Source: a virus. Taken from it: DNA of 18,454 bases. The notes beneath the pieces were generated by a model. It had not been told where the DNA came from. It saw nothing but the letters and a program-made list of their open reading frames with translations, and made no database searches. The position numbers and the translations under genes were made by a program. The stretch lies in UHGV virus genome UHGV-0237303. One strand, 5' to 3'. The first letter of the stretch is position 1. Every line of letters begins with the position of its first letter. This document shows, in pieces, positions 4,944 to 17,610 of this stretch.

Positions 4944-5544
4944 TTCGTTGTTACCACCATCAGCCAGCAATTTCATGCGTTGTGCCGAAGCCGTCGGAAC
5001 ACGCATTACAGACATTCCGGTAGACCTCAACACGCTGTGGTCGCCGGACACCTGCCCGGTGCATCTGCTGCCTTATCTCGCCTGGGCGTTTTCCGTTGAC
5101 CGCTGGGATCGCAACTGGCCGGAAGAGACAAAGCGACAGGTGATTCGTGATGCATGGCTGATACACCGACACAAAGGGACCATCAGCGCACTGCGAAGAG
5201 CCGTGGAGCCTCTCGGCTACCTGATTGAAGTAAAGGAGTGGTGGCAACTCAACGAGGAGCCGGGAACATTTCGCATTGTTGTCGGAGTACTTGATCAGGG
5301 CATCACCGATGAAATGTATCAGGAACTTGAGCGCCTTATTGCGGATGCAAAACCAGTAAGTCGCCATCTGACGGGGCTGGCGATCAGCCTGAGTGTGAAC
5401 GGAAAGATTTTCGTTGGTACGGGATGCTATCACGGCGATGCCCTGACGGTTTATCCCTACACCCCGGAGTCCATTATTGTCGAAGGGGATTATTTCCCTG
5501 CCCCAGCCATTCATTTAATTGATAATCTGAGAGTAAACGCATGA
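4936..5544 (+). CDS. I: Baseplate/tail protein (P2 gpI-like)
   Basis: ATG at 4936 overlaps the J stop (ATGAGTAA); 202 aa; stop overlaps the H start. Confidence 0.7.
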   Translation: MSNSLLPPSASNFMRCAEAVGTRITDIPVDLNTLWSPDTCPVHLLPYLAWAFSVDRWDRNWPEETKRQVIRDAWLIHRHKGTISALRRAVEPLGYLIEVKEWWQLNEEPGTFRIVVGVLDQGITDEMYQELERLIADAKPVSRHLTGLAISLSVNGKIFVGTGCYHGDALTVYPYTPESIIVEGDYFPAPAIHLIDNLRVNA

Positions 5545-7034
5545 CAGTGAAATACTACGCCATTCTGACTAATCAGGGCGCGGCACGACTGGCTAACGCG
5601 ACGATGCTCGGCAGTAAGCTGAATCTGACGCAAATGGCCGTTGGTGATGCAAATGGTGTGTTACCAACACCAGACCCTGCACAAACAAAACTGATTAACC
5701 AGAAACGCATTGCACCGCTGAATCTTCTGAGTGTTGACCCTAACAATCAGAGCCAGATTATTGCGGAGCAAATCATCCCTGAAAACGAGGGAGGATTCTG
5801 GATCCGTGAGATTGGTCTTTATGATGATGAAGGTGTACTCATTGCGGTGGCAAACTGCCCGGAAACGTACAAACCGCAGTTGCAGGAAGGCAGTGGACGC
5901 ACCCAGACTATCCGCATGATTCTGGTTGTCACGAACACCGAAGCTATCACGCTGAAAATCGACCCGTCTGTGGTTCTGGCAACCCGCAAATATGTGGATG
6001 ATAAAATCTCAGAGCACGAACAGTCACGACGTCACCCGGACGCCTCGCTGACCGCAAAAGGTTTTACTCAGTTAAGCAGTGCAATTAACAGTGAATCAGA
6101 AACACTGGCCGCAACACCGAAAGCGGTTAAGGCTGCATATGACCTGGCTAACGGGAAATATACCGCCCAGAACGCCACCACTATACAAAAAGGGATTGTT
6201 CAGCTCAGTAGCGCCACGAACAGCAAGTCTGAAACGCTGGCAGCGACACCAAAAGCTGTTAAGGCGGTAATGGATGAAACGAACAAGAAAGCACCATTAA
6301 ACAGCCCGGCACTGACCGGAACGCCAACAACACCAACAGCGCCACAGGGGACTAATAGTACCCAGATCGCAAGCACGGCTTTCGTTATGGCCGCGATTGC
6401 CGCACTTGTAGATTCGTCACCTGATGCACTGAACACGCTGAACGAACTGGCTGCGGCGCTGGGCAATGACCCGAATTTTGCGACCACCATGACTAACGCG
6501 CTTGCGGGTAAGCAACCGAAGGATGCCACCCTGACGGCGCTGGCGGAGCTTGCTACATCAGCAGATAAACTCCCATATTTTACAGGGGCAGATCGTGCCG
6601 CGTTAACCGCGTTGACAAGTGTTGGACGTGCCATTCTTGGTAAAACCAGCACTCAGGGAGTTCTTGATTACCTTGGTTTGGGAGAAGCGGCGAAAAGGGA
6701 TGTGGGTACAGGAGAAAATCAGATACCGGATATGTCAGCCTGGAAAAGAAATCCGAGTTCTAATCGCTGGAGAAAATTGCCTGATGGAACCATCATTCAA
6801 ATGGGAATATCAGCATCAGGGCCATTAGGCTCACCTGTAAATATCACCCTGCCGATATCTTTCAGCAATACCAATTATTGTGTTGTTGCATCGTACGATA
6901 ATGCACGGTCAGGTGTGTCAACAATGGTTAGTTTTGCAGCATTACCTGTTTCACCATCGCAATTTTCCCTGATGTCATCTGTGACTGAGCAAGGAATAAA
7001 TCCTTTTGCTTACTGGATTGCTTTTGGAGATTGA
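5541..7034 (+). CDS. H: Tail fiber protein (P2 gpH-like); the last ~120 codons lie inside the invertible segment
   Basis: 497 aa; conserved N-terminus MTVKYYAILTNQGAARLANA...; duplicated fiber motif SETLAATPKAVKA; the crossover site is embedded at codons 374-382 (VLDYLGLGE). Confidence 0.8.
   Translation: MTVKYYAILTNQGAARLANATMLGSKLNLTQMAVGDANGVLPTPDPAQTKLINQKRIAPLNLLSVDPNNQSQIIAEQIIPENEGGFWIREIGLYDDEGVLIAVANCPETYKPQLQEGSGRTQTIRMILVVTNTEAITLKIDPSVVLATRKYVDDKISEHEQSRRHPDASLTAKGFTQLSSAINSESETLAATPKAVKAAYDLANGKYTAQNATTIQKGIVQLSSATNSKSETLAATPKAVKAVMDETNKKAPLNSPALTGTPTTPTAPQGTNSTQIASTAFVMAAIAALVDSSPDALNTLNELAAALGNDPNFATTMTNALAGKQPKDATLTALAELATSADKLPYFTGADRAALTALTSVGRAILGKTSTQGVLDYLGLGEAAKRDVGTGENQIPDMSAWKRNPSSNRWRKLPDGTIIQMGISASGPLGSPVNITLPISFSNTNYCVVASYDNARSGVSTMVSFAALPVSPSQFSLMSSVTEQGINPFAYWIAFGD
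6661..6686. repeat. Left 26-bp invertase crossover site (hix/gix/cix-like), inside H
   Basis: TTCTTGATTACC-TT-GGTTTGGGAGAA: two imperfect 12-bp inverted half-sites around a 2-bp core; inner arm plus core (TTGGTTTGGGAGAA) is identical to the reverse complement of 8466..8479; closely resembles the remembered hixL sequence TTCTTGAAAACCAAGGTTTTTGATAA. Confidence 0.65.
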
Positions 7035-7037
7035 TAA

Positions 7038-7457
7038 ATGGACAGATACTTCTATTCACAAAAAGAAAATGGTTTTTTTACCGATTTAAATAAAGCACCT
7101 TCAGATGCTGTTGAGATAACCACGGATGAATGGCTGTCACTACTGGATGGTCAGGATAATGGCATGAAAATAGTCAGCAATCAGGAGGGATATCCGGTTT
7201 TGACAGAGCAACCACCTTTATCAAAAGAAAACCTTATTGCATTAGCAGAGTTGAAAAAAGGAAAACTTATTAATGAAGCCAACGAGCACATGAACAGCAG
7301 GCAATGGCCTGGTAAAGCGGCTATTGGTCGTCTGAAAGGTGAGGAACTGGCGCAATATAATTTGTGGCTGGATTATCTGGACGCACTGGAGCTGGTCGAT
7401 ACTTCCAGTGCGCCAGATATTGAATGGCCTACGCCTCCGGCAGTTCAGGCCAGATGA
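7038..7457 (+). CDS. Tail fiber assembly protein (P2 gpG/Tfa-like), cassette currently in the expressed orientation
   Basis: 139 aa, 3 nt downstream of the H stop; C-terminus ...LDYLDALELVDTSSAPDIEWP is shared with the opposite-strand Tfa (...LDYIDAVTVTDTSTAPDIIWP). Confidence 0.75.
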   Translation: MDRYFYSQKENGFFTDLNKAPSDAVEITTDEWLSLLDGQDNGMKIVSNQEGYPVLTEQPPLSKENLIALAELKKGKLINEANEHMNSRQWPGKAAIGRLKGEELAQYNLWLDYLDALELVDTSSAPDIEWPTPPAVQAR

Positions 7458-8022
7458 TATCCGGCGCGGTGCTGGTATCTGTTACCGTCACCGCGTCAAT
7501 GTAATCCAGCACGGCGTTAAGTCGGGTTGTTTCTGCCTGCGCCAACTTCCGTCCGGCCTGCAATTTCAGTTGAATCAGACTAATGGAAGCCATTGCAGTA
7601 TCAATCAGTGACTGACGTTGTGCTTCTGCCGCGTCTACTGCGGCGCTATGCTGTGCCTCGGTATCCGTCACCCATTTCTCACCATCCCATTTATCGTATG
7701 GCGTTAACGGTGAAAGCGTGACATAACCGTCTTTGATGGCACCGATATAATCCACTGTAACAGCTGCGCCATTTTCTGTTGAGTAAACAGTCTCATTGCG
7801 ATGGTCTTCTTCATGGCTCCATCCCTTACCCGTAAATACTGCCACTTTTCCCGGAATGTTTTCGCCAGGGTCAATACCAGTGGAACAGGCGGGCATACTT
7901 ACGCCAGTATTAATATATTCATCAGACCAGCCCGTATACTCAGATGTTTCAGCATCATAATAAAAACAACGCATATCGCCCGGCACTGTAGCCAGCCCAT
8001 TTTCATCAAAAACAGGTTTCAT
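7429..8022 (-). CDS. Alternative tail fiber assembly protein (Tfa'), silent orientation
   Basis: 197 aa on the minus strand; conserved Tfa C-terminus; converges on and overlaps the + strand tfa by about 29 nt; start overlaps the stop of the alternative fiber cassette (TAATG). Confidence 0.7.
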   Translation of the reverse strand: MKPVFDENGLATVPGDMRCFYYDAETSEYTGWSDEYINTGVSMPACSTGIDPGENIPGKVAVFTGKGWSHEEDHRNETVYSTENGAAVTVDYIGAIKDGYVTLSPLTPYDKWDGEKWVTDTEAQHSAAVDAAEAQRQSLIDTAMASISLIQLKLQAGRKLAQAETTRLNAVLDYIDAVTVTDTSTAPDIIWPELPEA

Positions 8023-8477
8023 TATTTAGCCCTCACCAGAAAGTTAAATGCAATATTTCGCGGTCTGACAGCAACAAAATTCACACCATCACCCACAGAG
8101 TTACTGGTGAAATTAAATCGTGAAAATCCTGGCTGATTTCCGGCGATGCCATCATGAAAGTTAATTGCGTGTCCCGCACCTTCGCCTATATTCCCGGCAA
8201 ACTGAGAAAAGTTTGTAGCTGCCTGCCAGCTTAATAATTCACGACCACCGTCTGCACCTCGCCCGTCATCCCAGATACGAATGAAATCACCGCGGGCTTC
8301 AGGTAATACCAGCGAAGGAAACACTTTCGCCAGCACAGGATAATCAGTGGCAGAGAATTTCGCGCCGTTGAACTTCAAAAACACCATACTGGACCAGCTG
8401 TCGATTACAGTATTTGGCATTGCAGCGGACGGCCAGAAGAACGGAACGCCAATAGCTGGAGAACCTTCTCCCAAACC
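8022..8477 (-). CDS. Alternative tail fiber C-terminal cassette (H'), no start codon of its own; expressed only after inversion fuses it to the constant part of H
   Basis: Minus-strand frame reads GLGEGSPAIGVPFFWPSAAM... from the crossover core at 8478/8479, with the same GLGE junction as the current H; the track ORF 8022..8519 extends further 5' only because the frame stays open across the site. Confidence 0.65.
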   Translation of the reverse strand, partial: GLGEGSPAIGVPFFWPSAAMPNTVIDSWSSMVFLKFNGAKFSATDYPVLAKVFPSLVLPEARGDFIRIWDDGRGADGGRELLSWQAATNFSQFAGNIGEGAGHAINFHDGIAGNQPGFSRFNFTSNSVGDGVNFVAVRPRNIAFNFLVRAK

Positions 8478-8491
8478 AACGTTTAAGAAAA
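8466..8491. repeat. Right 26-bp invertase crossover site, inverted relative to the left site
   Basis: + strand TTCTCCCAAACC-AA-CGTTTAAGAAAA; reverse complement TTTTCTTAAACG-TT-GGTTTGGGAGAA has inner arm and core identical to the left site; lies about 55 nt upstream of the invertase start. Confidence 0.65.
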
Positions 8492-8546
8492 TGCAGAGAT
8501 TACGGCTAACTGGCATCATCCCCGGTTTTTATTCAGGGGATCCATC

Positions 8547-9146
8547 ATGCTTATTGGCTATGTCCGCGTATCAACAAATGACCAGAATACAGAATTGCAG
8601 CGTAACGCGCTGGAGTGCGCAGGATGTGAACTGATTTTTGAAGATAAAATCAGCGGAACGAAATCAGCCAGACCGGGATTGAAAAAACTGCTCAGAACGC
8701 TATCAGAAGGAGATACGCTGGTTGTCTGGAAGCTGGACAGACTGGGCAGAAGTATGAAACACCTGATCACGCTTATTGAGGAATTGCGGGAAAAAGGTGT
8801 TAATTTCCGTAGTCTGACGGACAGCATTGACACATCAACACCCATGGGGCGTTTCTTTTTTCACGTCATGGGAGCTTTAGCCGAAATGGAACGTGAATTA
8901 ATTGTAGAGCGTACACTGGCCGGGCTGGCAGCAGCACGCGCACAAGGACGCATTGGCGGACGTCGCCCGAAGTTGACAAAAGAACAACACGAGCAAATAG
9001 CGAGGCTGATTAAAAACGGTCATGACAGGAAACAACTGGCGATCATTTACGACATCGGCATATCGACGATTTATCGTTATCACCCTGTAGGCGATATACA
9101 GGCTGAAGAAACAACTAGGCAGACTCAGGAAAATGAAAACCGCTAA
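8547..9146 (+). CDS. Serine recombinase, DNA invertase (Gin/Hin/Pin/Cin family)
   Basis: 199 aa; N-terminal catalytic motif MLIGYVRVSTNDQ with the active-site serine, resolvase/invertase core (GDTLVVWKLDRLGRS), C-terminal helix-turn-helix; adjacent to the invertible segment. Confidence 0.85.
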   Translation: MLIGYVRVSTNDQNTELQRNALECAGCELIFEDKISGTKSARPGLKKLLRTLSEGDTLVVWKLDRLGRSMKHLITLIEELREKGVNFRSLTDSIDTSTPMGRFFFHVMGALAEMERELIVERTLAGLAAARAQGRIGGRRPKLTKEQHEQIARLIKNGHDRKQLAIIYDIGISTIYRYHPVGDIQAEETTRQTQENENR

Positions 9147-9165
9147 TCTGACCATTAGCGGTTTT
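9135..9165. terminator. Bidirectional rho-independent terminator between convergent invertase and U
   Basis: Perfect 12-bp stem AAAACCGCTAAT / ATTAGCGGTTTT with 6-nt loop CTGACC; A/T runs on both sides so it can serve both strands; overlaps the invertase stop codon. Confidence 0.55.
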
Positions 9166-9172
9166 GCGTTAA

Positions 9173-9667
9173 TCAAAACAGCCCTTTAACGGAGCTGGCC
9201 GCGCTGTTAAGGGATGATGTGACCTTATCTTTGAAGCCGGACAGCATATCACTGAACGATGAGGATTGCAGGCGCTCCCGCAAATCCTCATCACAGCGTT
9301 CAAGAGTCAGTGAAAATTCTATCTTTTTCGCCTTACCGTAGCGATCAAACTCGGAGCGGGTCGTATTCGTTCCGGTCAGGACATACATGCCGTAAATCTG
9401 CCCGACACCATCAATCAGAGGCCAGGGGCGTCCTGTATATGCCTGCGTGGTCAGCAACGAAAGCGATACTTCGCCACCTGTAATTTCAGGATAAAGCACA
9501 CCAGAAAGAACGATGCGATCATCGCCTGCCCCGATATACTGCCAGCTTGCTGAACGGTTAACGCGTTCATTTTTCACATGCCGCCAGCTTTTGTTTTGCT
9601 GTAACTGCTGATGCGGCAGCGTGCGCAGCTCAAAAACAAACATGCCGTAGATCATCATCATGGCCAT
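9173..9667 (-). CDS. U: Tail protein (P2 gpU-like)
   Basis: 164 aa (P2 U about 159 aa) immediately downstream of the tape measure gene on the minus strand. Confidence 0.65.
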   Translation of the reverse strand: MAMMMIYGMFVFELRTLPHQQLQQNKSWRHVKNERVNRSASWQYIGAGDDRIVLSGVLYPEITGGEVSLSLLTTQAYTGRPWPLIDGVGQIYGMYVLTGTNTTRSEFDRYGKAKKIEFSLTLERCDEDLRERLQSSSFSDMLSGFKDKVTSSLNSAASSVKGLF

Positions 9668-9673
9668 GACTCC

Positions 9674-12517
9674 TCAATCTTTATCGTAAAAACTGCCACG
9701 CCCGGCACGGGCGCGCCGTTCCATTTCTGCCCTGACCATTTCACCGACCAGTTTCGCCAGTTCGCGGGGATTCTGTGTAACAACGTTATGCAGATGAACA
9801 TGAATTTCACCGCCAAATCCGGAAGCAACAGGCTCCCGGTTACGGGAAGTTGCAGGAACTGATGCCACTGGCGATCGTATGGCCTCTGCCACCGGGCGGG
9901 AGCTGGCCGCAACAACAGGGACCAGCGCCGGAGGCAGCGGAGCCGGAACCACAGGTGTGATATTAATTGCGGGGGCAGGCTTACTGACCTGCGCAATCTT
10001 CCGCTCCTGCCACTCCCCACGAACAGCAAGTGCGCGGGGCAGGTTCTTAAAGACAATATCGCCGGGGCCAATACGTTTTTTCGTCTCATCAACCAGCTTA
10101 CCTGTGTTATCAGCAATTTTGCTGAGTCTGCGTAGCGTACCGGTATTGCTGTCTGTGAGCGGTTTGTTGTCTTTGGGTTTATCACCTCCGGTGCCATTGC
10201 CATTTTCCACAGGCTTCGGCGGATTGATTTTCGCCAGGTCCCCCTGAAGCAAGGCAACCTTGTCCTGAAGAATGGCCGCACGCTGTGCGTCTTCGATTTT
10301 CTTGCGCGCCCTTTCCGCTTCATCCGGAAGCACACCGAGCTTTTCAAGTATCCACGCTAGCGTATCCAGCAACATTTTTGCAGGTGTCAGAACAAGTTGT
10401 AACGCACCGCCAAGAACGTTACCGAATGTCTCGCCAGCACTGGTACATTTATCCAGCGTTTCCTTGCTGGACTCCATCGGTGACAGCAGCGATTTAAACC
10501 AGTTAAACACCTGGCTGATCCCACTCCCGATTGCGTCAAAAACAGGACCAAACCGTTCAAAGGTTTCGCGCAACGGGGTCAGCCTTTCCATAATCCCGCT
10601 GAACACCCCGGCAAAAAATGCCCTGATGGGATCCCAGTATTTCCAGATAAGGACGGCAGCTCCGGCAAGCGCAGCCACGATAAGACCAACCGGACTGAAC
10701 AGCGCCCCGATAGCGCCTCCCAGTAAAGAAACGGAACCCGTCACCATTCCCCACAGTGCTGGCAGGACCCTGACAGCATTCATTGATCCGGTCAGGAGAG
10801 AAAAACCAAGGCGCAGTTTTGCCAGCGGACCAGCAAGCACACCAATAGCCAGCGACAACGAGCCAACCGTTGCAGTCATTGCCAGCAACGCACCGCCTGC
10901 TATCAGTAGCTGGCGCGTCAGTGCCGGATGGGCCTGCGCCAGCGCCGTCACCCTTGATACCACCCGCGTGAGCCACTGCGTGACAGAACGCAGCGGACCG
11001 TCAATCAGATCTGCAATGCGGATGCGCAACCCTTCCCATGCACTGCCGAGTGATTTCAGATCGCCGTCAAGGTTGTTGGCCATGACCTTTGCTGTGCGTT
11101 CAGCCTCACCGCGCGCGCCTTCAAGTTCTTTTCTCAGTTTAGGTAAGGAACCGTCACCCGCTGCATCAACGAGCGCCATAAACGATGTGAAAGCCTCTTC
11201 TCCGGCAATGTCCTTAAAGAACGATACCCGGTCAACTTCCCCGTATTTGCGGGTGGCTTTATAAAGGTCGGCCAGCACATCCTCCATCGGGCGCATTTTG
11301 CCGTTCGCGTCAGAGACTGCCACACCAAGCTCTTTCAGCGCCTCTGCTGCTGCCTTTGGCGGTGATGCCAGACGAGCCAGGCTGGCACGCATTGCCGTCC
11401 CAGCATCACTCCCTCTGATACCCATATTCGCCAGCACGCCCGCCATCGCTGCGGCCTGCTCCAGCGATATTCCCAGCTTACCCGCCACCGGACCTGCATA
11501 TTTCATGGTTTCGCCCAGTGCGCGAAGGTCAGTGTTGGTACGGGTAAATGCTGCGGTGAGCGTGTCGCCAACCCGGTCCATCTGGTCAGCAGAAAGGCCG
11601 AACTGCGTCAGGATATTTGAGCCAATATCCGCCGTCTCGCCGAGATCCATGCCGCCAGCCGTTGCCATGCTCAGCACGCCCGGAAGCGCAGCCTGAATGG
11701 CCTGCGGAGTGAAGCCAGCCATTGCAAGAAATGCCTGCCCACTGGCGGCATCGCCTGCGGTGAACTGCGTTTCAGAGCCAAGTTTTAACGCCTGCTCACG
11801 CAGCGCCTTAAACTGCGGGCTGTTCTGGTCGATTCGCGTCAGTGCCTGAACGCGGGACATCTCTTTGCCGAACCCGATCGCAGGCTGCAAAAAACGCCCG
11901 GCAGCATAGCCGCCAGCCGCTGCCGCACCAATTGCCAGCGCACCACCTGTTTTCAGTTTTCCCGCGGTTTCCTGCACGCGCGAATACCGCTCACGCGCCC
12001 GCGTTACACGCGCAAGCGCCTGCCGTTCGCGTTCAAGCTGGTTGTTGTACTGTTCGGTGCGTCTGATGGCCTGCTGGATGGTGTTATCGCTGCCTGTCAG
12101 GGAAATGCCGTGGCGTTTCAGCTCTCCGCCAAGCTCCCGCATTTTCTGAATTTCCCGTGTGCGCGATTCATTCAGGCGTTCAAGCCGGGTGCTTAACTGC
12201 TGCATCAGCTTTTGTTGTTTTTCGCTGAGCACTGTACCCGTGCGTTGTAACTGATTAAGGGCGTTAAGCTGGCGTCGCGCTTTCACGATACCCGCATCCG
12301 CTTTACTGACAGCGTCGCGGGCGCGCTCAAATGAACGCGCCTGACGCTCGAGATTTTTGATCGCCCCCTGCGTTCGCTGGATGGAGTCACCAAACTGCCC
12401 CATCAGGCGGCGGGCGTTTTCGGCAGGTCGGGTCAGCCTGTCAACGGCGCTGAAAGCGACCCGGATATCAAGAGTCTTCATTGTCTGCATTCCCGCTGCG
12501 AAGTGCCGCCCGCTCAC
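9674..12517 (-). CDS. T: Tail tape measure protein (P2 gpT-like)
   Basis: 947 aa, largest ORF; Ala/Gly/Gln-rich, long helical N-terminal part, hydrophobic Gly/Ala-rich central stretch; GTG start; position after E/E'. Confidence 0.8.
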   Translation of the reverse strand: MSGRHFAAGMQTMKTLDIRVAFSAVDRLTRPAENARRLMGQFGDSIQRTQGAIKNLERQARSFERARDAVSKADAGIVKARRQLNALNQLQRTGTVLSEKQQKLMQQLSTRLERLNESRTREIQKMRELGGELKRHGISLTGSDNTIQQAIRRTEQYNNQLERERQALARVTRARERYSRVQETAGKLKTGGALAIGAAAAGGYAAGRFLQPAIGFGKEMSRVQALTRIDQNSPQFKALREQALKLGSETQFTAGDAASGQAFLAMAGFTPQAIQAALPGVLSMATAGGMDLGETADIGSNILTQFGLSADQMDRVGDTLTAAFTRTNTDLRALGETMKYAGPVAGKLGISLEQAAAMAGVLANMGIRGSDAGTAMRASLARLASPPKAAAEALKELGVAVSDANGKMRPMEDVLADLYKATRKYGEVDRVSFFKDIAGEEAFTSFMALVDAAGDGSLPKLRKELEGARGEAERTAKVMANNLDGDLKSLGSAWEGLRIRIADLIDGPLRSVTQWLTRVVSRVTALAQAHPALTRQLLIAGGALLAMTATVGSLSLAIGVLAGPLAKLRLGFSLLTGSMNAVRVLPALWGMVTGSVSLLGGAIGALFSPVGLIVAALAGAAVLIWKYWDPIRAFFAGVFSGIMERLTPLRETFERFGPVFDAIGSGISQVFNWFKSLLSPMESSKETLDKCTSAGETFGNVLGGALQLVLTPAKMLLDTLAWILEKLGVLPDEAERARKKIEDAQRAAILQDKVALLQGDLAKINPPKPVENGNGTGGDKPKDNKPLTDSNTGTLRRLSKIADNTGKLVDETKKRIGPGDIVFKNLPRALAVRGEWQERKIAQVSKPAPAINITPVVPAPLPPALVPVVAASSRPVAEAIRSPVASVPATSRNREPVASGFGGEIHVHLHNVVTQNPRELAKLVGEMVRAEMERRARAGRGSFYDKD

Positions 12518-12997
12518 GCCAGCTAACCACTTCGCCGGGCGTCATCATGAAGATTTCGGCGGGCGACCAGTTAAAAATAACGGCAATATCTGCCACAAAG
12601 TCTTCTATGTGCTCAAAGCACACAACCGTGATCAGGCTTCCGTCGCCTGTTCGTTCTTCCCGCCAGAGTCCGCACCGCTCAAAAAATTTACGGCAACCAC
12701 ACATAACTGAATAAAGTCACGGGATGCCATTTTTTTGATCGTCACTTCATCCAGTCGCGGTGATGTCACGCGTGACAACAGCGTAAACATGGATTCCGCT
12801 TTCAGATTCAGCACATCAGACAGCGACAAATCTCGCAGAGATCCAGCCTGCTCAATAGCCCCGGTGATCTCCACATACGTGATTTTTTCGCCGCCTCGCT
12901 CAATGGATTGGGTAAGTTTTACGCCACGCTCACTGGTTTCTTTCACAGTGTCAGCAACTACCGTGTTTTCGGTATCGATGTTTTTCGTCTCTTTCAT
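12468..12997 (-). CDS. E+E' fusion product made by programmed -1 ribosomal frameshift
   Basis: Zero frame reads ...AAT TTT TTG (N104 F105 L106); the -1 frame ORF 12468..12704 reads straight through the same heptamer (...KFFERCGLW...); predicted fusion about 170 aa. Confidence 0.6.
12632..12997 (-). CDS. E: Tail assembly chaperone (P2 gpE-like), zero-frame product
   Basis: 121 aa between tail tube and tape measure genes; contains a TTTTTTG slippery heptamer near its 3' end with a -1 frame ORF running on past it. Confidence 0.7.
   Translation of the reverse strand: MKETKNIDTENTVVADTVKETSERGVKLTQSIERGGEKITYVEITGAIEQAGSLRDLSLSDVLNLKAESMFTLLSRVTSPRLDEVTIKKMASRDFIQLCVVAVNFLSGADSGGKNEQATEA
12680..12686 (-). 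other. Slippery heptamer T TTT TTG for the E/E' -1 frameshift
   Basis: Located by codon position from the ORF track (E codons 104-106); same heptamer as reported for P2 E/E+E' (recalled from memory). Confidence 0.6.
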
Positions 12998-13051
12998 CAG
13001 GAAACTCCTTTCAGTCAGAGGCGACGCACTGCGCCGCCTGCATATTACTTA

Positions 13052-13564
13052 TCAGCCAAGCCCAAGCGCGGAACGGATGCGATCGGGCACAATGTCCTTG
13101 CCGTCCTTCCGGTAAATGAAGTTCAGCAGGTCAATCTCCCACAACGGACGATCGTTAACACTCAGCTTGTAGTAGGTGTTTTTAATGGCGTAAGTGTGTG
13201 ATGTGGCTTCGCCCTGTTTGGCTTCCCCCATATCAATTTCCGTCACACGTCCGCGCATTTCGACTTCATACAGGTCGCTTTCTGCATCGGTGTAGTATTC
13301 ACCCGCAAAACGCAGCAGCGTGCCGTCAATCGTGCCGCCATACTTAAGGAACAGCTCACGAACTGCGCCCCCCATGACAAAGCTCGCATCAAGCGCGGAG
13401 TCGTCCAGACCGAGATCAATACTTACCGCCCCCATCATGCCACCACCCCGGTAGCTGTCGGTTTTGCGCGTCAGCTTAGGCAAAGTGACGGACGTCACCT
13501 TACCCACTTCGTTTTCACCATCCACAAACAGCGTAAAAAAGCGAAGATGTTTTGGCACAGCCAT
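13052..13564 (-). CDS. FII: Tail tube protein (P2 gpFII-like)
   Basis: 170 aa (P2 FII about 172 aa) directly downstream of the sheath gene; start overlaps the sheath stop. Confidence 0.8.
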   Translation of the reverse strand: MAVPKHLRFFTLFVDGENEVGKVTSVTLPKLTRKTDSYRGGGMMGAVSIDLGLDDSALDASFVMGGAVRELFLKYGGTIDGTLLRFAGEYYTDAESDLYEVEMRGRVTEIDMGEAKQGEATSHTYAIKNTYYKLSVNDRPLWEIDLLNFIYRKDGKDIVPDRIRSALGLG

Positions 13565-14748
13565 CAGGCACCTCCCAGCACCGCAAATGCGGGTTCAAAG
13601 TATTCATCAGTAAACGTCTGGTAAAGCTCCATGTCTTCCAGTGGCGGAACGGGCGTATATTTGTAGCGAATACGCACACGCCCCTGACGTAAATCCGTGG
13701 TGCTGTTATCCACCACGTCATACCAGCACTCCGCGCCAATCAGTTTCCCGGCAGTCACCAGTGAATCCAGTTTTGCCCTGATGGCACTGATAACATCCTT
13801 CACGTTCGCAGGCGTCAGTGGACTGTCGATGGTTTCAAACTGCGCTTCCGCAATTGAATCAGCCAGCACCTGTGCGGTTCGGGTATACACCTCAAAAATG
13901 TAGGCGTTCGTTTCCGGTGTGCGGTTGCCCCAGAAGCGGAACCCGTTGCGACGAATAATGGTCGTGATTTCTTTGTTGTTGAGGCTGTTGGCATCGCTGT
14001 CTTCGGCCTGCAACGACCAGAACACATGCCTCGACATCCCCAGCACATTTTTAACCGGAACGTTGGACAGCGATTTGTGCCAGCCCTGCTCATGGTCAAT
14101 GTACGCACGAAGGCCGCACGCATAAGCAGGCGCGGGGAACGTTTCGTTTTCGCCACTTTTCGGGTTGTAGGCGATGAAGTCCGGCCATAAGAGCATCACT
14201 TCACGTTCGTTGAATTTCTGGCGGTAGGTAATCGCTTCAGCCATCGTGTTACAGCCGTGACATGAGGCATACACAAATGCGCGCAGTTTACCCGCAATCA
14301 CGCACAGGGATTTTGTCACCGCCTCCGTGTCCAGCTCCGGCGCGGCCAGAATACGCGGACGGTATCCGATGCTTTCATCCTGCTCTGCAACAAGCAGCGC
14401 ATACATCCCCGTATAGCTGCCGTCATCCTCAGAACCACCGATAACCAGTTGATCCTGCGTCTTTTCGTCTTCTTCTTTGTGTTCAGCCACGCGAACGACG
14501 ATCACCTTTGTGCTCACCTGGTCTGCGATGGCCTTAAGCGCACGATAAAGCGTCCCCGTTGTTCCGCATTTTCCCAGCACGTCATTGACGCGGGTCAGCA
14601 GTGTGGGCTTGTTCAGCGGGAACAGCTTCGCGTCCGCATCATCCGCCGTTGCCACGATACCGATAACGCTGGAATCAACATCGTTAATCGCTGTTACCAG
14701 GTCGGTATTTTCCGTAACACGGGCACCATGAAAACGAGTTTCACTCAT
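13564..14748 (-). CDS. FI: Contractile tail sheath protein (P2 gpFI-like)
   Basis: 394 aa (P2 FI about 396 aa); AAGGGG Shine-Dalgarno upstream of the ATG; first gene of the minus-strand FI-FII-E-T-U block. Confidence 0.85.
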   Translation of the reverse strand: MSETRFHGARVTENTDLVTAINDVDSSVIGIVATADDADAKLFPLNKPTLLTRVNDVLGKCGTTGTLYRALKAIADQVSTKVIVVRVAEHKEEDEKTQDQLVIGGSEDDGSYTGMYALLVAEQDESIGYRPRILAAPELDTEAVTKSLCVIAGKLRAFVYASCHGCNTMAEAITYRQKFNEREVMLLWPDFIAYNPKSGENETFPAPAYACGLRAYIDHEQGWHKSLSNVPVKNVLGMSRHVFWSLQAEDSDANSLNNKEITTIIRRNGFRFWGNRTPETNAYIFEVYTRTAQVLADSIAEAQFETIDSPLTPANVKDVISAIRAKLDSLVTAGKLIGAECWYDVVDNSTTDLRQGRVRIRYKYTPVPPLEDMELYQTFTDEYFEPAFAVLGGA

Positions 14749-14904
14749 AGCTTCAGCCCCTTGTATCCGTTAAATGATTCGGCAACAATCATCACCCACC
14801 ACGCGCGTAATCTCACCCCTGCGCCGTTCTCCCGCCACGGCGACAACAAAAAGCAGTAACCCCCTCCGCACGCACATGCGACCATGCCACACAGGGAGGG
14901 AGCA

Positions 14905-16015
14905 GATGACCGACACCACCATGCAATTGCTCAGTCAGGGCACAGACCCCGTGAAAATGCCGGATTTTGATATTCTCGCGGAGGGTAAAACGCTGTCAGG
15001 CGTGGCAGAGCGCCTGATGAGCCTGTCACTGACCGACAACCGGGGATTTGAAGCGGACCAGCTCACCATCACGCTGGATGATGCGGATGGTCAGTTGCAG
15101 CTACCGCCACGGGGCGCGCGCCTGACGGTTCTCATTGGCTGGAAAGGAGAACCGCTGACAGAAAAAGGCACTTACATTGTTGATGAAATCGCTCACGAAG
15201 GACCGCCGGACAGGCTGACTGTTTCAGCCAGAAGCGCAGATTTTCGGGATGAATTTAACGTTAAACGTGAGGTGTCCTGGCATGATGTGACCGTTGAGCG
15301 TGTGGTATCCGCCATCGCTCATCGGTACGGTCTGAAACCGCAAATCAGCGAAATGCTGATGGATATCGAAATCGACCACGCCGACCAGACCGAAGAAAGC
15401 GACATGTCCTTCCTTACGCGCATGGCGGAAATGCTGGGCGCAATCACCACGGTAAAAAGCGGCAATCTGTTATTCATCATGCCAGGTGGTGGCGTGAACG
15501 CACAGGGCCAGCCGTTGCCCTCGTTCGCCATTACACGCAGCAGTGGCGATCGCCATCAGTTCCGCATTGCTGACCGCGAGGCGTATACGGGTGTACGCGC
15601 CTACTGGCTTGATCTTAATTACGGGAAAAAGAAAAAAGTCAGCGTGAAACGCCGCAAACCGCCAAAACCCAAAAAGGAGAAAAGCAGCAGCCGTGAAGGT
15701 GATTATATGGAAGGCGCGGAAGGCAATGTGTTTGTGTTACGCAAGACTTATCAGAACGAGCAGGCAGCAAGACGCGCAGCGGCGGCAAAGTGGCAGCAGC
15801 TACAACGCGGAGCCGCATCATTCTCCATCATGCTGGCACGCGGACGCGCAGAACTCTACCCCGAAATGCATGGCACGGTAACAGGCTTTAAAAGCGAGAT
15901 TGATAATCAGGACTGGATTATTGCAAAAGCCGAGCACACCATTGATAACAGCGGCTTTACCACACAGCTTGAGCTTGAGGCAAAAATCCCGGAATGGATA
16001 GCAGAAACAGAGTGA
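14905..16015 (+). CDS. D: Late control / tail protein D (P2 gpD-like)
   Basis: ATG at 14905 with GGGAGGG Shine-Dalgarno (internal Met of track ORF 14774..16015); 370 aa (P2 D about 387 aa); lysine-rich central linker (KKKKVSVKRRKPPKPKKEK). Confidence 0.7.
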
Positions 16016-16135: not shown

Positions 16136-17158
16136 TTAATACGCATTTAATTTAAATTTGTATTTGCCTTCTATGTAATGGATAAATTCAATTATGCTTT
16201 TTTCTATCGCATCTAATATATGAATATATCCATCCCGATTTAAGGTCCTATCCAACTCAAAGTGATGAACTATCCCATGTCTATATTGTATGATTTCAGA
16301 AATTCGATTCTCAAGAAAATCAACTGATTTTCCAATTCTTTTTTTCTTATAAAGAATCGCTCTCACATCTATATCCAGCCACTCTTTATATGCTTTGTTT
16401 AGGTGAGTTAAGTTTTGAAAAGTGTAATTTCTTGCAATAACACTTTCTATTGAAATATTTCCTTTCTCTATCTCAAGCAGAATATCAAAATCAACTTTTT
16501 GCTTATACGATGTTCTTTTTGCTATTGCGAAAGGATCGTACTTTATAAGTATTTGAAAAGCTCTAGAGAAAAAATATTCAAACATAGCAACCGCAAAAGG
16601 TACTAATCCATTATATATAACTCTACTGGGATCCATACATTGCATGTAATCAAAGTATTCGGATAAGCCGCCATCTTCCGGTAGGTTTAATTTAATAGAA
16701 GGTTCAGGTAAGGCATGTTTAACAGCGGAAATCTCATGATGGACATGATTAAATATTGAAGAAATGCCGCGACTGATCGGACTACTAGAATCCTTCCATA
16801 GAGGAGCGTACCTATTTTTCCCATAATCACCTATAAGTGTTCCACCAAAAAGACTCCTTGCGCCTTTTAGAACATCATTAAGCATTTTTACATCATGCCA
16901 ACTAGCGCTATATAAATTACGCACATGCAATGCCCATTTATTACCAGATATGTGTAGTTCGTCATTTGAAACAGGATATATATCAGCCGAAACTCCATCT
17001 GTAGATTTGAAGTCCGTATCATCAAACCAAGAGTAATTCAACGTTCCTTGGGGCCATTCCCACAAATGTTTACACCTTTTAAAACCTAAATTTTCAAGGT
17101 AATTTTTAAGTTCGTTTCTAGTTGCTTTTTTAGGGTACAGCGTTATATCTCTTCCCAT
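16136..17158 (-). CDS. Hypothetical 340-aa protein on AT-rich acquired DNA; candidate accessory/defence protein (possible HEPN-like R-x4-H motif)
   Basis: Single long minus-strand ORF with AT-rich, Ile/Lys/Asn/Tyr-rich codon usage unlike the flanking phage genes; AGGTGA Shine-Dalgarno about 8 nt upstream of the ATG; no resemblance to any P2 structural protein I can recognise; C-terminal YRHGIVHH. Confidence 0.6.
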   Translation of the reverse strand: MGRDITLYPKKATRNELKNYLENLGFKRCKHLWEWPQGTLNYSWFDDTDFKSTDGVSADIYPVSNDELHISGNKWALHVRNLYSASWHDVKMLNDVLKGARSLFGGTLIGDYGKNRYAPLWKDSSSPISRGISSIFNHVHHEISAVKHALPEPSIKLNLPEDGGLSEYFDYMQCMDPSRVIYNGLVPFAVAMFEYFFSRAFQILIKYDPFAIAKRTSYKQKVDFDILLEIEKGNISIESVIARNYTFQNLTHLNKAYKEWLDIDVRAILYKKKRIGKSVDFLENRISEIIQYRHGIVHHFELDRTLNRDGYIHILDAIEKSIIEFIHYIEGKYKFKLNAY

Positions 17159-17349: not shown

Positions 17350-17610
17350 ATGTTCCGTTGTCCGCTTTGTGGCGCATCTGCCCGTATCCGCACAAGTCGT
17401 CCGGAAAATGATTCAAACACCGTGCGGCAAAAGTATTACCAGTGTAACAATCTGGAATGCGGCATATGCTTCTCAACACTGGAAGCTTTCCATAAATTCA
17501 CATCGAAACACGCCTCCGGCGTTCACTCTTCAGAAGGTATCCCGTGGCATGAGCTACCAGCTTCACACAGGGGAAACAATCAGATGAGTTTGCCTTTACC
17601 TCAGAATTAA
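17350..17610 (+). CDS. ogr: Ogr/Delta-family zinc-finger late transcription activator
   Basis: MFRCPLCGASARIRTSR...KYYQCNNLECGICF matches the remembered P2 Ogr pattern MFHCPLC...ARTSR...YHQCQNVNCSATF (C-x2-C...C-x4-C); strong AAGGGAGG Shine-Dalgarno; 86 aa versus 72 aa in P2. Confidence 0.8.
   Translation: MFRCPLCGASARIRTSRPENDSNTVRQKYYQCNNLECGICFSTLEAFHKFTSKHASGVHSSEGIPWHELPASHRGNNQMSLPLPQN

Follow-up and report, generated by a model that had tools for sequence, protein, structure and literature searches.

Gene order and crossover sites at the fibre locus

The window, the whole 18,454-nt stretch of virus genome UHGV-0237303 analysed here, carries the tail fibre gene H (5541-7034, plus strand), which in its current state encodes 497 aa and consists of a constant part (5541-6672) fused to C-terminus A (6675-7034). 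In Pfam searches the H protein shows an N-terminal Phage_tail_fib domain, Phage_fiber_2 repeats, and a Gp53-like_C domain at residues 412-496. Two genes follow which overlap tail to tail by 29 nt, and both encode Caudo_TAP tail fibre assembly proteins: Tfa-A (7038-7457, plus strand, 139 aa, E = 2e-26), the cognate chaperone of C-terminus A, and Tfa-B (7429-8022, minus strand, 197 aa, E = 1e-26), the cognate chaperone of a silent fibre C-terminus B (8022-8477, minus strand). The latter runs from GSPAIGVPFFWPSAAM to NIAFNFLVRAK, comprises 147 aa after the GLGE motif, and lacks an upstream fibre body in the current orientation. An earlier, sequence-only reading of this DNA held that the two C-termini are unrelated and that each has its own assembly gene, and both claims are borne out here (BLASTP of A against B, E = 0.47). 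The similarity between Tfa-A and Tfa-B is confined to the C-terminal 65 aa of Tfa-A (38% identity), and their N-terminal halves are divergent.

Two 26-bp sites bound these genes. The left site, TTCTTGATTACC-TT-GGTTTGGGAGAA (6661-6686, plus strand), has its TT core at 6673-6674 and lies within H at codons 374-382 (VLDYLGLGE), and the right site, TTCTCCCAAACC-AA-CGTTTAAGAAAA (8466-8491, plus strand), has its AA core at 8478-8479. As had been noticed from the sequence, the left inner arm together with the core, TTGGTTTGGGAGAA, has one further exact copy, inverted, at 8466-8479, where 0.14 matches within two mismatches would be expected by chance. A repeat finder extended the inverted repeat to 18 nt with 17 of 18 positions complementary (6670-6687 and 8465-8482). 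Furthermore, a loose scan of the 18.4 kb for the 26-bp architecture TT..AAACC-NN-GGTTT..AA returned exactly these two sites against 0.14 expected, with two or more found in 4 of 300 simulations, and the same scan, used as a control, recovered the known pair of sites, and no others, in phage Mu and likewise in e14. Like the sites of other invertase systems, the two sites have a 12-2-12 architecture with imperfectly symmetric half-sites, inverted orientation, and matching asymmetric cores, and the left outer arm TTCTTGATTACC is two positions off the AAACC motif. The 14-bp identity of the sites, along with their diverged outer arms, resembles the design of Salmonella hixL and hixR, which have exactly 14 bp in common (inner half-site and core) and also diverge in their outer half-sites. 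The identity itself stood, but the accompanying hint that it says something about site polarity yielded nothing new. In serine invertase systems polarity is set by the asymmetric 2-bp core, and in the window it is given by the core dinucleotide, TT on the left and AA on the right.

Between the cores lies a segment of 1803 bp (6675-8477) that holds the two C-terminus and chaperone cassettes tail to tail. When its inversion at the cores was simulated, the result was a 529-aa H protein reading ...GLGE-GSPAIGVPFFWPSAAM..., compared with 497 aa at present, so that the fusion is in frame both ways, as predicted, and the 3' end of H is exchanged together with its cognate chaperone gene. Annotated H genes of 1590 nt in two related loci (L002 and L003) imply the same length of 529 aa, and C-terminus B is the expressed H end in L002-L005. 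All open reading frames of the module are intact in the window, including the silent 151-aa C-terminus and Tfa-B. C-terminus B is 93% identical to the side-tail-fibre ends of phages mEp213 and mEp043 and shows a weak match to the tip collar region of T4 gp37 (PDB 2xgf, E = 0.022), and no significant match to a solved structure was found for C-terminus A. These comparisons assign domain types, Gp53-like_C for A and a weak T4 gp37-like collar motif for B, and the solved-structure searches assigned no receptor class to either. Fibre tips form intertwined trimers.

The invertase and a candidate Fis enhancer

Outside the segment, a gene for a 199-aa serine DNA invertase of the Gin/Hin/Cin/Pin family (8547-9146, plus strand) starts 55 nt beyond the right site, where a Gin/Hin-family gene had been proposed. 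The product, a small serine recombinase, combines a catalytic domain at the N-terminus (Pfam Resolvase, E = 6e-52) with a C-terminal helix-turn-helix domain (HTH_7), has the catalytic serine, and matches the Gin structures 4m6f and 3uj3 with E = 1e-91. In the alignment to Gin 4m6f, Ser9, Arg7, and D64-R65-x-x-R68 are identical, as is the KLDRLGRS motif, so the catalytic residues are intact, and the position of Gin M114 is occupied by the wild-type Met. The protein has 141 residues identical to those of Gin (~73%), 151 identical to those of PinE, and 194 of 199 (97%) identical to those of a prophage invertase from EPEC E2348/69. A simple sigma-70 scan reported no promoter in the interval from the right site to the ATG of the invertase, and PADLOC gave no matches for the invertase and the 340-aa cargo ORF. 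A hairpin with a perfect 12-bp stem, resembling an intrinsic terminator, lies at 9136-9165 between the convergent invertase and gpU genes.

A Fis-bound enhancer acting in cis is normally found in the 5' part of an invertase gene, ~100 bp from a site. In the window the region 8568-8631 is plausibly a Hin-like Fis enhancer, with two putative Fis-site cores at 8568-8582 and 8617-8631. This region aligns at 47 of 64 positions with the stretch of hin enclosing ATTTA/TAATG, a sequence that the Hin enhancer paper locates between the Fis sites. At the ends of both putative cores, the G and the C do not vary among 56 distinct invertase genes, and synonymous diversity along the invertase gene reaches its two deepest minima within 8568-8631 (0.22-0.27 compared with a mean of 0.37), although constraint on translation initiation could be an alternative cause of a dip at the 5' end. 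The centre of the predicted Fis-I site is 96.5 bp from the centre of the right site, compared with 105.5 bp in Hin. In their centres the putative cores are a poor match to the degenerate Fis consensus, and a scan with that consensus missed them. That scan, with GNNYRWWWWWYRNNC over the initial 260 nt of the invertase gene, returned candidates at gene nucleotides 94-108 and 131-145, 37 bp apart, which were dropped as an enhancer once the search was anchored on the actual hin sequence and on the geometry published for the Hin enhancer.

Segment orientation among relatives and known inversion systems

Orientation was compared between genomes, and in this comparison natural loci carry the segment either way round, with the crossover at the sites. 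The predicted flipped junction is present in four complete E. coli genomes, with 97-98.5% identity over the full 401 nt, and the current junction in two. In the near-isogenic L002, whose flanks are 99.9% and 99.7% identical to those of the window and colinear with them, 7255-8482 is inverted, and the breakpoints fall at 6670-6687 and 8465-8482. In L015, also near-isogenic, with flanks 100% and 99.4% identical, the cassette expressed in the window (6670-7710) occupies the silent position. In L063, which has an e14-like lambdoid background, the entire 1815-nt segment is inverted at 96.5% identity, and homology ends at both sites. Among the two-site relatives there are six flip-flop pairs with identical segment lengths, and one Tfa protein (WP_041124215.1) is encoded identically on opposite strands in E. 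coli 1303 and strain CFIAFB20190157. Cassettes are also reassorted between loci. The left 26-mer has an identical site in 13 related loci, the right 26-mer is found in 17 loci including the window, and the start of a site always lies 80-81 nt 5' of the invertase ATG in the related loci. The outer arm TTCTTGATTACC is likewise present in relatives found in both orientations. Ends of IMG/VR contigs near the segment were considered as a sign of mixed orientation and dropped, since such ends are also common just 3' of the invertase.

Judged by sequence similarity, the closest relative of the locus is the e14 P region with Pin, and not the Mu G segment. Like the window, e14 P of E. coli K-12 (pinE, stfP/tfaP, tfaE/stfE) has a two-site segment of ~1.8 kb with the invertase outside, a GLGE fusion junction, and two tail-to-tail Tfa genes overlapping by 29 nt. 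Its pinE-proximal site is identical to the right site of the window at 25 of 26 positions, and the site inside stfP is identical in inner arm and core to that of the window, whereas the left outer arm and the cassette pair differ. In e14, a defective lambdoid element, the switched gene is a truncated side-tail-fibre remnant and stfE is annotated as a pseudogene, whereas the switch of the window lies in H, within a P2-family myovirus prophage that appears complete. The Mu G/Gin and P1 C/Cin systems, compared here on Mu, are organised alike: the N-terminal part of the fibre is constant, each of two alternative C-termini has its cognate chaperone (in Mu, S with U and S' with U'), and the invertase lies beyond the second site, immediately outside the segment. 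However, Mu has a ~3-kb segment, a GA/TC core, a GLQE junction, and the same 26-mer at both sites, in contrast to the TT/AA cores and diverged outer arms of the window. The Salmonella Hin H-segment, like the window, has 26-bp sites with only the 14-bp inner arm and core in common. Its enhancer occupies the 5' end of hin, ~100 bp away from the site closest to it. Unlike in the window, hin lies inside the segment, and inversion moves a promoter of flagellin genes rather than swapping a coding C-terminus.

Among P2-like prophages, phase variation of tail fibres has been shown by sequencing in EPEC E2348/69 (Goldberg et al. 2014, PMC4272514), where a locus with three inverted repeats has three C-termini and all four variants occur together in culture (PMC4272514). 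The E2348/69 prophage locus L093, which is the source of the 97% identical invertase, has flanks 98.7% and 96.7% identical to those of the window and a left site that differs by 1 nt, and from its three sites it appears to be that published locus. The window has the two-site, two-variant form, and a shufflon-like multiple inversion involving three or more sites does not describe it. Relatives of the locus with three to eight crossover sites do exist.

The locus sits in a P2-family genome of the P88-like (Xuanwuvirus) type. Escherichia phage P88 (Xuanwuvirus, Peduoviridae) has the gene order of the window: lysis genes, R, S, V, W, J, I, and H, followed by tfa, a reversed tfa, a reversed fibre end, the invertase, U-T-E-FII-FI on the opposite strand, and D. 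By Pfam assignment, V-W-J-I-H and the FI-FII-E-T-U block of the window are on different strands, with the invertase between H and U. The invertase/gpU DNA of P88 is ~81% identical to that of the window, whereas P88 has a longer fibre gene (2295 nt) and other cassettes; Peduovirus pro483, unlike the window, has the P2 order. A secondary invertase-mediated inversion was considered for the reversed FI-U tail block (9173-14748) and rejected, as P88 has the same layout as its standard one, and no site-like or significant inverted repeats were found at the block borders.

A probable two-state fibre switch and its alternatives

The sequence-only reading had proposed a complete fibre switch of the Mu G, P1 C, and e14 P type; all of its coordinates and sequence statements were reproduced, and relatives carry both orientations with breakpoints at the two sites it had proposed. 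Taken together, our results indicate that the locus is very probably a complete two-state tail-fibre host-range switch of the Hin/Gin/Cin/Pin family in a P88-like P2-family prophage. Dimers of the invertase (8547-9146) would bind the two inverted 26-bp sites (6661-6686 and 8466-8491) and most likely come together with Fis at an enhancer within the opening ~85 nt of their own gene. Both sites would then be cut at the 2-bp core (TT/AA), and one half would be rotated by 180 degrees and religated, which inverts 1.8 kb. In this way the 377 constant codons of H, expressed from the phage late operon, would be joined in frame through the common GLGE codons to one of two tips, namely the gp53-like C-terminus A with Tfa-A in the present state (497 aa) or the collar-type C-terminus B with Tfa-B in the flipped state (529 aa), and a lysogen population would give rise to virions with two receptor specificities. 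Inversion by the window copy, its dependence on Fis, and the difference in receptor between the states are what we infer.

The flipped segment of L063, 96.5% identical in an e14-like background with homology ending at the sites, points to the possibility that the segment is a portable unit bounded by its crossover sites, which we regard as unlikely. If true, this would agree with exchange by invertases among prophages that share a host, or with invertases acting in trans to rewire each other's fibres, and flipping in a lysogen could also aid host defence through adsorption-blocking fibre chimeras such as that reported for PinQ and StfE2 (PMC12529663). This extension may hold, and the window copy itself lends it no specific support.

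A related reading, that the switch serves at least in part to defend the lysogen, with one fusion product blocking the adsorption of other phages, is improbable. The e14 chimera StfE2 is reported to do so after PinQ-mediated inversion (PMC12529663). The sites of the window are near-identical to those of e14, and the segment is also found in the e14-like background of L063. However, H is part of a complete cluster of late genes in a prophage that appears intact, and no separate promoter was detected before the variable part of H in a sigma-70 scan. The late genes of P2-type phages are silent in lysogens, which counts against a defensive role, and no sequence feature demands one.

We also think it improbable that the locus is a frozen relic with intact anatomy, in which inversion has been lost, for example because the invertase is unexpressed or the degenerate left outer arm is unbound, and in which the silent cassette is decaying. 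The left outer arm is indeed off AAACC and no promoter-like site was found 5' of the invertase; moreover, some relatives have decaying silent cassettes (annotation marks a frameshift in that of E. coli 504838), and in L063 the right site has a mutated inner arm, AAATC. Against this, the module reading frames and catalytic residues of the window are intact, both of its sites are identical to those of relatives seen in both orientations, and a 97% identical invertase resides in an EPEC prophage that is apparently variable in experiment. In addition, invertases of this family can act in trans, as PinQ inverts the e14 segment (PMC12529663).

Finally, it is highly improbable that orientation differences between genomes arose by horizontal exchange or homologous recombination of cassettes rather than by site-specific inversion: cassettes are clearly reassorted between loci and the conserved centre at 7255-7710 (the C-terminal halves of both Tfa genes) is a possible substrate for homologous recombination, but in every comparison the breakpoints lie within a few nt of the 26-bp sites, segment lengths are identical within flip-flop pairs, homologous recombination across an 18-nt repeat is very inefficient whereas an intact dedicated invertase lies 55 nt away, and in related loci both variants occur together in single cultures (PMC4272514).

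The two-state host-range switch is a device of a textbook type which is already known; the present copy is ordinary and apparently intact, and the finding opens no new question. Its main value is for annotation: the coding sequence beside the invertase that pipelines call a partial tail protein or a gp53-like domain protein is a silent alternative end of H. Assemblies of such prophages capture one of the two states, and induced lysates are predicted to have two receptor specificities. The reassortment of cassettes is wide among P2-like and lambdoid prophages and is useful for predicting or engineering host range.

The switch module and its crossover sites

On its plus strand, the window carries the P2-type late genes L (head completion), X, holin, M15 endolysin, LysC, R, S, V, W, J, and I, in this order, followed by the tail-fibre gene H (5541-7034, plus strand) with a Phage_tail_fib N-terminal domain, fibre repeats, and a Gp53-like C-terminal domain. 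The present C-terminus of H lies between two crossover sites, together with the tail fibre assembly genes Tfa-A (7038-7457, plus strand) and Tfa-B (7429-8022, minus strand) and a C-terminus-only reading frame (8022-8477, minus strand), the silent alternative end of H. A serine recombinase (invertase) gene of 199 aa starts at 8547, 55 nt past the right site. A sequence-only reading had proposed an invertase-driven tail-fibre host-range switch here, with two unrelated C-termini each served by its own Tfa gene. All the elements it described were confirmed. The two C-termini are unrelated to each other, and both Tfa proteins belong to the Caudo_TAP family, with likeness confined to their last 65 residues (38% identity). 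The convergent Tfa genes overlap at their 3' ends by 29 nt (7429-7457), as they do in e14 (tfaP/tfaE) and in seven related loci (L001-L007). Ahead of the silent C-terminus lies an in-frame ATG (8517-8519, minus strand; ORF 8022-8519), positioned beyond the segment in the spacer that leads up to the invertase gene; for this reason, ORF finders and RefSeq annotation report the silent end in relatives as a small CDS of its own, labelled 'phage tail protein' or 'gp53-like domain'.

The left site (6661-6686; TTCTTGATTACC-TT-GGTTTGGGAGAA) lies within codons 374-382 of H (VLDYLGLGE), and the right site (8466-8491), read as a 26-mer, is TTCTCCCAAACC-AA-CGTTTAAGAAAA; their 2-bp cores are TT at 6673-6674 and AA at 8478-8479. 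The last 14 nt of the left site have exactly one further copy, inverted at 8466-8479, as the earlier reading had placed it, against 0.14 matches expected by chance, and a repeat finder returned an 18-nt inverted repeat (6670-6687/8465-8482, 17/18 complementary). A loose scan of the 18.4 kb for the 12-2-12 architecture found only these two sites versus 0.14 expected; applied to phage Mu and to e14, it picks out precisely the two known sites of each. In a comparison of 87 related loci, conservation covers the inner half-site and the five innermost positions of the outer half-site, whereas the distal outer bases vary. Since Salmonella hixL and hixR have in common exactly the same 14 bp (inner half-site and core) with differing outer half-sites, this design is the family norm, and the suggestion that the 14-bp identity bears on site polarity yields nothing new. 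In serine invertases, polarity is set by the asymmetric core. Because the two inner arms are identical, inversion leaves both site sequences as they were. The window has the simple two-site form. Many invertase relatives contain 3 to 8 sites about 440-600 nt apart (L047, L036, L045, L049, L046, L038, and L034), forming shufflon-like arrays of short C-terminal cassettes.

The invertase and its predicted enhancer

The invertase matches the Gin crystal-structure sequences across 185 residues (E = 1e-91), with conserved Ser9 and DRLGR motif, and has the wild-type Met where the crystallised Gin sequences have Val. It shares 141 identical residues with Gin of Mu and 151 with PinE of e14.

Inversion by Hin depends on an enhancer of 65 bp that lies roughly 100 bp away from a hix site, is bounded by two Fis sites, and holds the motifs ATTTA and TAATG between them (PMC3798978). 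In a real Salmonella hin locus, these motifs are bracketed by hin nt 25-88, which start GTGTCAACAATTGAC and end GTGCAAATTGTGACC. Window 8568-8631, starting GTATCAACAAATGAC and ending GCGCAGGATGTGAAC, is identical to this stretch at 47/64 positions, and the right-site centre is 96.5 bp from the centre of the first putative Fis core versus 105.5 bp in Hin. Both putative cores keep their terminal G and C without exception in 56 distinct invertase genes of related loci, and the two windows of lowest synonymous diversity in the gene are nt 1-48 and 64-102 (0.22-0.27 versus a mean of 0.37), albeit such constraint at gene 5' ends can also have other causes. The search for a Fis enhancer in the 5' part of the gene, proposed earlier, yielded a predicted candidate at 8568-8631, whose conservation is supported, though short of proof.

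Both orientations among relatives

Simulated recombination at the 2-bp cores produces an in-frame H of 529 aa (...GLGE-GSPAIGVPFFWPSAAM...NIAFNFLVRAK), in agreement with the fusion across GLGE foreseen from the sequence. The predicted flipped junction (401 nt) is present at full length in four complete E. coli genomes with 97-98.5% identity, and the current junction in two. In three relatives, cassettes of the window itself occupy the opposite position. In L002, with colinear flanks (99.9% and 99.7% identity), window 7255-8482 is inverted and the breakpoints, 6670-6687 and 8465-8482, are the two crossover sites. L015 (flanks 100% and 99.4% identical) has the currently expressed cassette (6670-7710) in the silent position, and in L063, of e14-like background, the entire 1815-nt segment (96.5% identity) is inverted relative to the invertase. 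Furthermore, six flip-flop pairs with equal segment lengths (1805, 1840, 1865, 1885, 1611, and 1746 nt) were found among two-site relatives, and E. coli 1303 and strain CFIAFB20190157 encode an identical Tfa protein on opposite strands. Comparison of these genomes argues strongly for inversion at these sites in the family, and indirectly for inversion of this particular copy; the tail-fibre switch reading holds.

A defence role is possible, considering that inversion by PinQ in e14 yields a chimera, StfE2, that blocks adsorption of T2 (PMC12529663), but it is unsupported for the window because H sits in the late operon of an apparently complete prophage. That the switch is a frozen relic is improbable, as every component is intact and has an identical counterpart in relatives that occur in both states. 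Homologous recombination would account for cassette reassortment through the central region 7255-7710 that the cassettes have in common, but it leaves the site-precise breakpoints unexplained and is a most improbable source of the orientation differences compared with site-specific inversion. This region, comprising the C-terminal halves of both Tfa genes, is the sole part of the segment common to most cassette combinations (91-96% identity), and looks like a hinge for reassortment.

Nearest known systems and prophage background

Of the named systems, the e14 P region with Pin comes nearest. The right site matches the pinE-proximal site of e14 at 25/26 positions, the e14 site within stfP has the same inner arm and core, and the GLGE junction and tail-to-tail Tfa overlap are shared. 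The Mu G segment is alike in layout but differs in length (~3 kb) and cores (GA/TC). A prophage of EPEC E2348/69 (L093) has flanks 98.7% and 96.7% identical to the window and an invertase identical at 194/199 residues but, unlike the window, contains three sites (5187/6748/7187). Goldberg et al. described three inverted repeats and four coexisting variants at one locus, and also reported on e14 and on a simpler P2-like locus with two variants (PMC4272514); L093 is presumably this three-repeat locus, as the site number fits. The switch is of a well-described kind, and its parts recur in near-identical form in many E. coli genome sequences.

Signs of switch decay were seen in two relatives: the silent cassette of E. 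coli 504838 (L006 6057-6559) is annotated as frameshifted, and the invertase-proximal site of L063 (3920-3945) has AAATC in place of AAACC in its inner arm, changing GLGE to DLGE.

The minus strand encodes the tail genes U, T (947 aa), E, FII, and FI (9173-14748), which run against V-W-J-I-H and against the P2 order, and the plus strand resumes with gpD (14774-16015) and ogr (17350-17610). A local rearrangement was rejected, since phage P88 (Xuanwuvirus), which the genomic background matches, and E. coli 1303 have this layout as standard; in P88, too, U to FI come after the invertase in opposite orientation, ahead of D. No site-like repeats flanking the block were found. Peduovirus pro483, unlike the window and P88, keeps the P2 order. 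Where the invertase and gpU genes converge, a perfect 12-bp-stem hairpin (9136-9165; AAAACCGCTAAT...ATTAGCGGTTTT) between their stop codons looks like an intrinsic terminator. A 340-aa ORF between gpD and ogr (16136-17158, minus strand) has no PADLOC match, and its sole match is a sub-threshold Pfam HEPN_RiboL-PSP hit (E = 1.2e-4, 22.5 bits versus a cut-off of 28.4); this ORF could represent cargo or a defence gene sitting at a variable site of the prophage. As listed, the gpD ORF (413 aa) begins just 25 nt from the divergent sheath gene, whereas its P88 homologue (366 aa) starts ~158 nt from the P88 sheath gene, and the true start is probably an internal codon near 14915.
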